Shown here: positions 14,240-17,200 of the stretch, piece by piece
Layout of the letters: every line of letters begins with the position of its first letter
How positions within the stretch are numbered: the first letter of the stretch is position 1
Assembly (NCBI GenBank): GCA_042408215.1
Contig: JAYFMW010000017.1
Span: 96,001 to 160,000, forward strand
DNA from: Microcoleus sp.
GTDB lineage: Bacteria; Cyanobacteriota; Cyanobacteriia; Cyanobacteriales; Microcoleaceae
Direction of reading: 5' to 3'
DNA length: 64,000 bases
Notes under the pieces: generated by a model
Told to the model about the DNA's origin: nothing
Seen by the model: the letters and a program-made list of their open reading frames with translations, nothing else
The model's database searches: none
Position numbers and translations under genes: made by a program

Positions 14240-17200
14240 ATGTTAGAAATAATTAATCGTTACGCTCACGGTTTTGTAGTTATTCCAGTAATTTTGGCTT
14301 GTAAACAAAAAGGTCTGTTTGATCTCCTACAGCATCAAAATTCGCTGACTTTAGAGCAAATTACCTCACGTCTTGGGGCAAACAGCGGACACCTCCAAGT
14401 GGCTTTGAGGATGATGCGATCGCTCAATTGGCTTGAACGAAATGAGGTCGGACAGTATGCTCTAACAGATGGGGCTGAGATTCACAAAAAAATACCAGAA
14501 GAAATCCTAGACTTGTATCACCTGCCTGTAGAGTCTTACTTAAAGGGAGAGCAGCAGCCCGGTCTTCTCAAAGATTGGATCGAACGTTCCAGCCAGCGGT
14601 GGAATATTAAAGACCCAGTGATGGCAGATTTCTTAGATGGGATTCTGGTCATCCCTATCTTGCTTGGGCTCCACAAGTACAACCAACTTGTGGAAGATGA
14701 AGGTGGGCACTTATTCTCACAATTAAGCGCTCCCGTGCGCGAGGAATTGTGCCAACTGTTTGAGAATAAAGGGTGGGCCAATCGGAAAGAAGGTCATTGC
14801 GGCCTCACTGATGTCGGTAGATTTATAGCAGACCGGGCCTTGATTACCGGAACTACAGCTTCTTACACTCCCATGTTATCTCGGATGCCAGAGTTGCTGT
14901 TTGGCGACTGTCAGGCTGTGTTTTCCAGAGATGCTGCGGGGCACGAAACCCACGTCGATCGCACCCTAAACGTGGTGGCTAGTGGATTTCAGCACGAGAA
15001 GTATTTTGCTGATGTAGAGGATATCATATTATCTATTTTCAACAGGCTGCCTTATGAAGAGCAACCGAACTACATTGTCGATATGGGGTGTGGAGATGGA
15101 ACGCTTTTAAAACAGGTCTACGAAACCATTGGGTCGAAGTCCGCCAGAGGTAAAGTGCTGGATCTGTATCCCCTGCGCGCGATCGGGGTGGACTATAACG
15201 AAGCATCCATAACTGCGACAGCACGAACTCTAGCGGGTATCCCACACATAGTTCTGAAGGGAGATATCAGCGACCCGGAGGAAATGGTGGCTTCTTTGAG
15301 GAAGCGTGGAATTAACGATCCCGAAAATATCCTTCACATTCGGTCATTTCTAGACCACGATCGCCCCTTTATTTATCCCCAAAATTTAGAAAAGGCACAA
15401 GCTCGCGCTCACTTTTCATATCAAAGCGTTTCTGTCGATCCACAAGGGAATCTAATTCCTCCCCATATCATGGTACAAAGCTTGGTAGAACACCTAGAAC
15501 GGTGGTCCAGAATTGTCACTAAGCACTCTCTGATTATTTTGGAGGTTCACTCCTTAGAACCCCAAGTCATTAATAAGTTTTTAGATAAAAGTGAAAATTT
15601 ACATTTCGATGCCTATCAGGCATTTTCCAGGCAGCATCTTGTAGAAGCAGACGTTTTTCTGATGGCTGCTGCTGAAGCTGGTTTATTTCCGAAAGTTGAA
15701 TTTTCTAAGCAATACCCCAAAACATTTCCCTTTAGCCGCATTACCCTAAATTGCTTTGAGAAAAGACCTTATACGATCCGTCACCCCAATTTGTCAGACC
15801 TGCCAGCTTTAGTCCATTTGGAAGCTAAGTGTTGGTCAGAACACTTACGGACAGCCACCTCAGAAATTCAAAAGCGGATCGAATGCTTTCCAACCGATCA
15901 TTGTGTTCTAGAAATAGACGGTCAATTGGTGGGAGTCATGTATTCTCAAAGAATTTCCAATGCCGAGATATTGAGAAAGGCCACTTACGCGGAAGTTCCG
16001 TCGCTGTACGATCCTCAAGGGCCAGTCATCCAACTTCTTGGCATCAACATTCTCCCTGAAATGCAGGATAAAGATTTGGGCGATCGCCTGCGCGAATTTA
16101 TGCTACAGTTGTGTGCCCTAAAAGGCGGCATTTCGCGCGTGGTAGGGGTGACTCGCTGCAAAAACTATGTGTCACAGGCAGATAGTCCAATAGAAGAATA
16201 CATCCATCAGAGGAATGAACTAGGGCAGCTTTTAGATCCAATTTTGCGCTTCCATGAAGCGGGAGGAGCCACAATCGAGGCAATAATTCCGAATTACCGT
16301 CCAGAAGATGCGGACAATCGCGGGATAGGGGTTTTGATTGAATATAACATCCACGCGATCCAGCCAAAGCATTCTCAAGCAGCAGTCACAGAAGAGATTT
16401 GGCGCGATCGCCAGCCAAGCGAACGAAGGGAAAACGAAACCTTAGACGAAATTCTCAAAGGATGCCTCCGTTCTGTGATAGGCAACGAGCGCATGGCTGC
16501 TTTTGGTTCAAAACGGCCACTGATGGAAATGGGGTTGGACTCTCTAGAGCTTTTGGAACTCAAAATGCTCCTGAGCCTGCGCCTTGGCGTGGAGCTTGAA
16601 CCCACTTTCTTCTTTCAGTACAGTACGCCAGAAGCGATCGCTCGTTATTTTCAAAAGCCAATGTCAGCAACAGATACAGCTATGAAAGAGCCCATGTCAT
16701 CTATTCTGGATACTTCTAAAAAAGTTGAAGGGAAGGATCATTACAAGCCCTCAGAAGTTATAGCTTCGGGTGAAGATTTAATTGCCATTATTGGTATGGC
16801 GTGTCGATTCCCCGGAGGAGCGAATAGTAATGAAGAATACTGGTCAATTCTGTGTGAAGGCATCGACACCATCAGTGAAGTCCCTAAAACACGCTGGGAT
16901 ATAGATCGATATTACGATCCTCGGCAGGGTAAAAAGGGAAAAATCTTAACTAAGTGTGGGGGATTTCTAAACCAGCCAATCCAAGAATTTGACGCAGAGT
17001 TTTTTAGGATTGCCCCTAAAGAAGCTACCTACATGGACCCTCAACAGCGAATTTTGCTAGAGGTGACTTGGGAAGCGCTGGAAAATGCAGGATTAAACGC
17101 ACAAGCGCTTACCGGAAGCAAGACAGGAGTGTTTGTTGGTATATATAATTGTGACTACGATCGCCTCTTAGTTAAAGATGAAGAAGGCAAACACTCTAAC

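Follow-up and report, generated by a model that had tools for sequence, protein, structure and literature searches.

We analysed a 64,000-nucleotide stretch of the genome of the cyanobacterium Microcoleus sp. (assembly GCA_042408215.1, contig JAYFMW010000017.1, positions 96,001 to 160,000 of the forward strand; hereafter the window) and found a 10.2-kb gene whose first 2.4 kb specify an entire chain-initiation module of the AprA/GphF/CurA/ThiA/SxtA family, consisting of a methyltransferase (MT), a GNAT-like decarboxylase and an acyl carrier protein (ACP). This loader is fused to a polyketide synthase (PKS), and the gene belongs to a small, non-toxin, four-part cluster of PKS, nonribosomal peptide synthetase (NRPS) and major facilitator superfamily (MFS) genes. 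The loader is predicted to methylate and decarboxylate malonyl-ACP, and we assign the proposed explanation as a whole, that is, the loader, its chemistry and the cluster, a probability of roughly 0.6.

The loader-PKS gene

The gene encodes a loader followed by one complete reducing extension module with ketosynthase (KS), acyltransferase (AT), dehydratase (DH), C-methyltransferase (cMT), enoylreductase (ER), ketoreductase (KR) and ACP domains:

14240..24427, + strand: loader-PKS gene, an open reading frame (ORF) of 3395 aa with the order MT-GNAT-ACP-KS-AT-DH-cMT-ER-KR-ACP and an acidic C-terminal tail
14240..15751, + strand: C-methyltransferase of the AprA MT1/SxtA MT type, dependent on metal and S-adenosylmethionine (SAM); aa 1-504 with AprA_N, winged helix and Methyltransf_36
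within 14240..15751, + strand: MT determinant sites Thr205 (= SxtA Ile204) and Tyr459 (= SxtA Phe458), located by alignment
15764..16354, + strand: GNAT-like decarboxylase domain, aa ~509-705; Thr638/His672 align with CurA Thr355/His389
16400..16654, + strand: loading ACP, aa ~721-805, with the serine motif GLDSLE
16781..24334, + strand: the extension module with KS 848-1223, AT 1381-1665 (HAFH, malonyl type), DH 1751-2023, cMT 2234-2405, ER 2822-2993, KR 3016-3194 and ACP 3301-3365

The original prediction had described positions 14240-16660 as a relative of SxtA domains 1-3 that lacks the AONS domain and is fused to a modular PKS, and this description proved correct. The coordinates correspond to aa 1-807, an exact fit to the MT-GNAT-ACP part, and all eight groups of SxtA-like motifs that had been quoted were found in the 3395-aa translation. 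The likeness is real and far beyond chance, with a PDB search returning the SxtA MT-decarboxylase structures 7UCI/7UCL with 1028 bits over aa 1-705 (~64% identity), AprA MT1 (6B39) with 678 bits over aa 2-578, and the GNAT structures of CurA (2REE, 224-227 bits) and GphF (6MFC, 149-152 bits). Structures of PKS carrier domains matched aa 721-805, in which the DSLE motif is located at aa 767, and KS matches begin at aa 848.

Pfam assigned AprA_N to aa 1-67 (96 bits), WH_AprA to aa 133-223 (105 bits) and Methyltransf_36 to aa 236-504 (373 bits), each against a cut-off of 27, and the last profile was covered from 1 to 268 of its 268 positions, so that the window encodes a full-length MT. In the same search, the PP-binding profile matched two stretches of the loader-PKS ORF, a KS followed the loading ACP, and the aminotransferase/AONS domain (PF00155) was absent from this ORF. 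KS, DH, cMT, ER, KR and ACP show their usual motifs when read from the translation. The blocks DMGCGDG, HIRSFLDHDR and LEVH of the MT are invariant in 14 aligned relatives; we treat these invariant His/Asp/Glu blocks as conserved sequence and not as assigned metal ligands. The catalytic pair of the GNAT-like domain is kept in the window, and across 175 aligned rows Thr is found in 152 and His in 173. We take Thr355 and His389 to be the CurA residue numbers, with which the chain offset agrees.

The fusion of such a loader to a PKS is the rule in this known family, which Pfam profiles define, and not an oddity, and the loader itself is ordinary. At E<=1e-20, it matches 319 proteins of 449-1430 aa, the best of which are stand-alone tridomain proteins of ~830 aa with 68-72% identity (e.g. 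from Calothrix CCY 0018) followed by SxtA with 60-61%, and 378 proteins of 1867-5942 aa. The closest relatives, P0122 and P0123 (metagenome/NCBI proteins of 3657-3659 aa), have loaders that are 85-87% identical and the same PKS domains, but they end in a thioesterase (TE), whereas the window protein hands over to an NRPS. Five long proteins, one of them from Microcoleus sp. BROC3, reach 75-78% identity. A relative is encoded in 435 of 586 candidate stretches drawn from contigs of one genome per species, with hosts among cyanobacteria, myxobacteria, Pseudomonadota, Planctomycetota, Acidobacteriota, Paenibacillus and others. The closest named orthologue, in Microseira wollei NIES-4236 (locus L015, 7645-15831), shares the PKS domain set and 83-88% nucleotide identity in the loader; it is cut into three pieces by insertions at ~8274-9999 and 11326-12923, the second of which carries an IS605 OrfB/TnpB-type gene.

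SxtA of Cylindrospermopsis/Raphidiopsis raciborskii (7UCI/7UCL) has the same MT-GNAT-ACP order, is collinear over aa 1-805, shares the GNAT Thr/His pair and is ~64% identical over MT-GNAT and 60-61% when the ACP is included, but SxtA ends in AONS, whereas the window protein runs into a KS and is not accompanied by an sxt cluster. AprA of the apratoxin pathway (6B39) shares the MT fold with its N-terminal lid and has Thr and Tyr at the mapped determinant sites; it differs in its MT1-pseudoGNAT-MT2-ACP order, with Leu at the position of the catalytic Thr in all four AprA-like rows, whereas in the window the GNAT-like decarboxylase is intact and MT2 is missing. The GNAT of CurA (curacin, AR-GNAT-ACP, 2REE) aligns end to end with that of the window, and Thr355/His389 are conserved; CurA has a vestigial MT, the adaptor region, and an acetyl starter, whereas the MT of the window is full. 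GphF, the loader for gephyronic acid, was compared through its GNAT structure (6MFC) only.

Predicted starter unit and product

Because Thr205 and Tyr459 match the dimethylating AprA and not the monomethylating SxtA, we predict an isobutyryl starter; on balance, we expect the window loader to make dimethylmalonyl-ACP and from it isobutyryl-ACP, and not propionyl as SxtA does. According to the discussion section of PMC10784701, exchanging the active-site Ile of SxtA for Thr leaves space for another methylation and imitates the dimethylating AprA. The assignment of this gatekeeper rests on that secondary passage and on our own alignment of 175 rows, where only one position within aa 1-505 combines the Ile of SxtA with the Thr of AprA, namely SxtA 204, which corresponds to Thr205 in the window. 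At this site, Thr is present in 10 rows of the window's 13-row clade (Val in two, Ile in one) and in all four AprA-like rows, as well as in P0169 (Myxococcaceae MCy9487) and P0173 (Corallococcus terminator), which are ~53-54% identical to the window loader. The six natural SxtA rows have Ile (four) or Val (two), and the six sister stand-alone rows have Ile (five) or Val (one). At the second site, Phe458 in SxtA (His in 7UCL), the window has Tyr, as AprA does. The split between Ile/Val in the SxtA clade and Thr in its neighbours provides a simple, testable means of predicting whether a starter is propionyl or isobutyryl.

For the thiamyxin producer MCy9487, PMC10100342 describes feeding with methyl-13C-methionine, which supports an isobutyryl starter formed by bis-methylation of malonyl, and states the same origin of the starter for gephyronic acid. 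P0169, the presumed thiamyxin loader ThiA, resembles the window protein in its MT-GNAT-ACP followed by KS-AT-DH-cMT-KR and in its gatekeeper Thr; it differs in being myxobacterial and ~54% identical over MT-GNAT, while the module of the window adds an ER and is followed by a single NRPS module. P0169 was also considered as GphF and rejected, since 6MFC was not among its PDB matches at E<=1e-60.

The product would be completed by the genes downstream of the PKS, which encode condensation (C), adenylation (A) and peptidyl carrier protein (PCP) domains and an exporter:

24520..26118, + strand: TubC_N docking domain and C domain, a 532-aa ORF that is separate only by one extra C at 26041-26045
26006..29020, + strand: A-PCP-TE, the same NRPS gene continued; code DAQDVGVVDK, Gln/Glu type
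27476..27718, + strand: PilZ domain in the C-terminal subdomain of the A domain, between A8 and A9 (P0241 aa 491-571)
29022..30329, + strand: MFS efflux transporter, starting 2 nt past the NRPS stop

The break between the C and A domains is an assembly artefact, and the NRPS is intact. The two ORFs overlap in different frames at the five-C run 26041-26045, and with one C fewer the frame runs through the usual C-A linker. Short-read contigs from three public runs in two studies are all one letter shorter at 26041; one is identical over 25400-26298, one over 25929-26094, and one is ~95% alike. The best-matching contig may stem from the window's own sample, yet it was assembled separately; for runs X4-X19, the fraction of words in common with the stretch is small. 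In its orthologues, the NRPS is one uninterrupted ORF of 1464 aa. An extra C of the same kind after TTGCCC, at ~62260-62263, splits the essential cytochrome f gene of the window, and two such frameshifts point to a systematic error of the assembly.

One of its ten positions separates the A-domain code from DAQDLGVVDK, which is assigned to both Glu and Gln in a 2025 survey (PMC12283262). The PilZ insert (43 bits, cut-off 22.5) lies between GRTDNQVKVRGFRIELGEIE and LPEYMIP in an otherwise complete A domain. All 54 database matches to the insert combine PilZ with a carrier domain, 52 of them also list AMP-binding, and the insert is present in 26 of 60 other genomes of the genus, in some of them in several copies. 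Its DxSxxG motif reads DISTDG (DIStGG is at least 90% conserved in 52 rows), and the upstream RxxxR is absent, the sequence there being LIPeR.PYH. Among the titles and abstracts searched, we found no paper on a PilZ insert in adenylation domains.

Domain content, family membership, catalytic residues, tree position and the lack of sxt genes were observed, whereas how often the MT acts, which amino acid is used and what is made are inferred from sequence, as follows. Malonyl would be loaded onto the loading ACP, and the metal/SAM-dependent MT, judging from Thr205 and Tyr459, would methylate C2 twice to yield dimethylmalonyl-ACP, which the GNAT-like domain (Thr638, His672) would decarboxylate to isobutyryl-ACP. 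KS, AT (malonyl), cMT, KR, DH and ER would extend this starter once, and because there is a single extension module, 2,4-dimethylpentanoyl-ACP would result. The acidic tail of the PKS would then dock on TubC_N of the NRPS, the C domain would couple the acyl chain to Gln (or Glu), which the PilZ-interrupted A domain would activate, and the TE would release an N-acyl amino acid of ~258 Da, probably 2,4-dimethylpentanoyl-Gln/Glu, for which the MFS transporter is the probable exporter.

Several points weigh against this explanation. Lao et al. in 2022 reportedly needed three changes to turn SxtA into a dimethylase, namely at the metal site, an added base and Ile to Thr; two of these three determinants were mapped onto the window, and the metal-site change is not among them. 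Over all 175 rows, the gatekeeper is Val in 71 and Thr in 68; the clade of the window itself varies at the site equivalent to Phe458 (Y, C, I, F). Three characterised systems underlie the Thr rule, and P0169 is presumed to be ThiA solely on account of its strain and its architecture. Motif positions and what we take to be the PheA numbering were used to read the A-domain code, and the TE could cyclise instead of hydrolyse. Finally, the loader was not found in 24 genomes of the same genus and 16 of the same order (E<=1e-50), so that it has no support from conserved context in the genus, and it was likewise not found in four further genomes of the genus.

The main alternative, which we regard as possible although we doubt it, holds that the MT methylates once, as SxtA does, giving a propionyl starter and a 2-methylpentanoyl amino acid as the product. 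It draws on SxtA being the best-scoring solved structure (1028 versus 678 bits for AprA), on the position of the window's clade next to that containing SxtA, and on the unmapped metal-site determinant and the variable Phe458 site already named, but it leaves the window with a gatekeeper that is neither Ile nor Val, unlike all 12 natural rows of the SxtA and sister clades, and with the Tyr459 of AprA. Quite improbable is an MT that is vestigial or inactive like the adaptors of CurA or LynB1, with the GNAT decarboxylating malonyl-ACP to an acetyl starter: loaders with a reduced MT do exist in the family, as in the 'minimal lid region' of LynB1 described in PMC10127204, but the MT of the window is ~64% identical to the active SxtA MT, covers the whole Methyltransf_36 profile and keeps the three invariant blocks.

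Relationship to SxtA and sxtA screening

The IQ-TREE tree places the window loader outside the SxtA clade and near it, so that the phylogeny did not move the domain far from SxtA. For FastTree, we kept 169 of 240 returned proteins that cover the query from aa <=15 to >=690, dropping 70 partial rows and the PDB construct P0022. IQ-TREE was run on 53 rows, namely those surrounding the query and SxtA, selected members of adjoining clades and an outgroup of three (LG+C20+F+G4, PMSF; support given as ultrafast bootstrap/SH-aLRT); its root is that of the chosen outgroup only, and the tree does not give the direction between donor and derivative. The window groups with P0122 and P0123 (100/100), and its clade has 13 rows (99/98), nine of them fused to a PKS and four standing alone. 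The SxtA clade, represented by five rows (100/100), has as its sister group (99/93) six MT-GNAT-ACP proteins that stand alone, including those of Kalymmatonema NIES-4073, Fischerella CENA71 and Phormidium LEGE 05292, with Fischerella PCC 9431 represented as locus L020; the PKS loader P0137 (100/99) and then P0132 (73/53) follow outwards. The window's clade joins the SxtA-containing group only after these and with weak support (70/89). All named members of this neighbourhood are cyanobacteria. The chain in 7UCL corresponds to residues 1-710 of C. raciborskii SxtA, with 709 of 710 positions identical, and this SxtA shares a cluster with a Microseira wollei record that bears the name SxtA. Identity to the window loader is 56-61% for SxtA, versus 76-95% within SxtA.

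The suggestion that this gene may resemble the donor from which sxtA was assembled is thus retained in part: the clades are adjacent (70/89), but SxtA has closer kin (99/93, 100/99), and PKS fusion is common (378 proteins). According to PMC2684587, a 2009 proposal derived the N-terminal 800 aa of SxtA from a deltaproteobacterial PKS. The dense cyanobacterial radiation of loaders around SxtA, to which the window adds one more member, weakens that proposal; that this radiation, and not a deltaproteobacterial PKS, was the source of sxtA domains 1-3 is a separate suggestion, made as tentatively as that of the unlikely graft considered below for the locus.

The genome (7.36 Mb, 30 contigs, 99.98% complete) contains no saxitoxin pathway. 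The amidinotransferase profile PF02274 had no match in the whole genome, and tblastn of full-length SxtA returned only the gene studied here (60% identity, aa 1-811) and one AONS-like stretch that is 27% identical to SxtA aa 855-1224 and lies on another contig; it returned no second SxtA-like loader. A single carbamoyltransferase-family gene is isolated on contig C19, and because this family is widespread, we do not take it as a sign of sxtI. No sxt-like gene was found among the 27 other window ORFs scanned, whose products include a hybrid kinase, a response regulator, ECF sigma factors, an OAA-type lectin, the NRPS and the MFS pump, as well as FtsW, CemA, RTX/cadherin proteins, a rhomboid protein, TatC, PetC, cytochrome f and similar proteins. 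The claims that no other sxt gene lies nearby and that the gene is a non-toxin relative of SxtA are therefore upheld for the window, where the gene is surrounded by sigma factor, lectin, NRPS and MFS genes, and genome-wide, where the search for other sxt genes uncovered no complete sxt cluster. That the gene is left over from a saxitoxin-type pathway or belongs to one unrecognised, or that its lineage was the direct donor of sxtA domains 1-3, is highly improbable and largely refuted: the 60-64% identity over 700-810 aa and the adjoining clades are set against a genome without an AONS fusion, an amidinotransferase or a second loader and with a lone carbamoyltransferase-family hit, against the well-supported closer kin of SxtA, and against a predicted chemistry that differs from that of SxtA.

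The original prediction had also warned of false positives in sxtA-targeted PCR and metagenomic screens, and the PCR part of this warning was not supported. Scanned in silico with primers taken from papers, six pairs for sxtA and one each for sxtG and sxtI, at a tolerance of 5 mismatches per primer, the whole genome gave no credible amplicon from the six published sxtA pairs and none below 5+5 mismatches; all that these pairs yielded were two 'amplicons' with 5+5 mismatches, on contigs C27 and C7. The only primer binding the window gene was the Al-Tebrineh 2010 reverse primer (window 16294; one mismatch, at the second base), whereas its forward partner has at least 6 mismatches anywhere in the loader region and at least 3 anywhere in the genome. 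As controls, four of the six pairs (Al-Tebrineh 2010/2012, Savela, Ballot) bound six true sxtA loci (L005, L006, L009, L012, L022 and L058) with 0-4 mismatches and the expected spacing. The Savela and Ballot pairs were set aside as a test of the window gene, as they target the AONS part, ~2.7-3.35 kb from the start of sxtA.

Screens by read mapping or k-mers would keep the window gene and sxtA apart, the loader being 68-69% identical to true sxtA DNA over 2.1 kb with a longest shared exact word of 17-20 nt. For toxin monitoring, the result on this look-alike is reassuring. The warning stands only for loose protein-level metagenome screens that do not require AONS, given the 56-61% identity; such screens should demand the AONS part or more than ~75% identity before sxtA is called.

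Stand-alone genes without AONS in the sister group of SxtA, from Phormidium LEGE 05292 (L018), Scytonema PMC 1070.18 (L019) and Fischerella PCC 9431 (L020), match the Al-Tebrineh 2012 pair with 3 mismatches in the forward and 1-2 in the reverse primer, ~737-884 nt from the gene start and with the right spacing of 148 bp. These genes, and not the window gene, are the plausible source of sxtA false positives. A 'split SxtA' in Fischerella PCC 9431 was considered and rejected, there being no AONS gene within ~10 kb on either side of L020; around it lie a C-A-PCP-TE NRPS, LanM, and HMGL-like and halogenase-like genes. AONS also stands behind MT-GNAT-ACP in two more lineages outside SxtA (P0018, P0024, P0026, P0030, P0031, P0033 and P0166), one a six-member clade of 1207-1298-aa proteins and the other a single 2240-aa protein with KS-AT in between, and the tree requires the AONS label to change three times.

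Mosaic structure of the locus

One of the four further genomes of the genus in which the loader was not found (G044; locus L086, contig C32) has a syntenic locus with the hybrid kinase, the response regulator, C-A(PilZ)-PCP-TE and the MFS gene, without the PKS, the docking domain, and the sigma and lectin genes. Nucleotide identity between the two is 87-91% over window positions 1-7696 and 93.5% over 27120-29627, and positions 8265-25927 have no nucleotide match in the G044 locus. The C domains share 39% protein identity; along the A domain, identity is 62-74% at aa 1-200, 20-28% at aa 200-340, which include the pocket, and ~93% at aa 390-1003. The features concerned are:

8265..27120, no strand: stretch of ~19 kb unmatched in the G044 locus, with ECF sigma, lectin, loader-PKS, docking and C domains and the A-domain core
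8654-9943, + strand: ECF sigma gene with an in-frame TAG near 9056; region 2 before and region 4 after it, in the same frame
10393-11505: second ECF sigma gene, intact
11838-13583, + strand: lectin protein of 581 aa, with an OAA-family domain at its start (NCBIfam, 208 bits) and two stretches of Pfam SBD

On this sequence comparison, ~19 kb of the locus appear as a mosaic replacement with one end inside the A domain; the comparison does not give the direction, which may be gain in the window or loss in G044. Tentatively, and as a rather unlikely reading, a recent natural graft of ~19 kb may have replaced the front of a resident C-A(PilZ)-PCP-TE/MFS locus. Its cargo, put forward with the same reserve, would have been the dimethylating loader-PKS and the docking domain, along with new versions of the C domain and of the A-domain pocket. 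If this were true, the locus would make a new short branched N-acyl-Gln/Glu, the assembly of which would be gated by a PilZ second-messenger sensor in the A domain. The lectin gene lies directly upstream of the PKS, within the stretch that is absent from the G044 locus.

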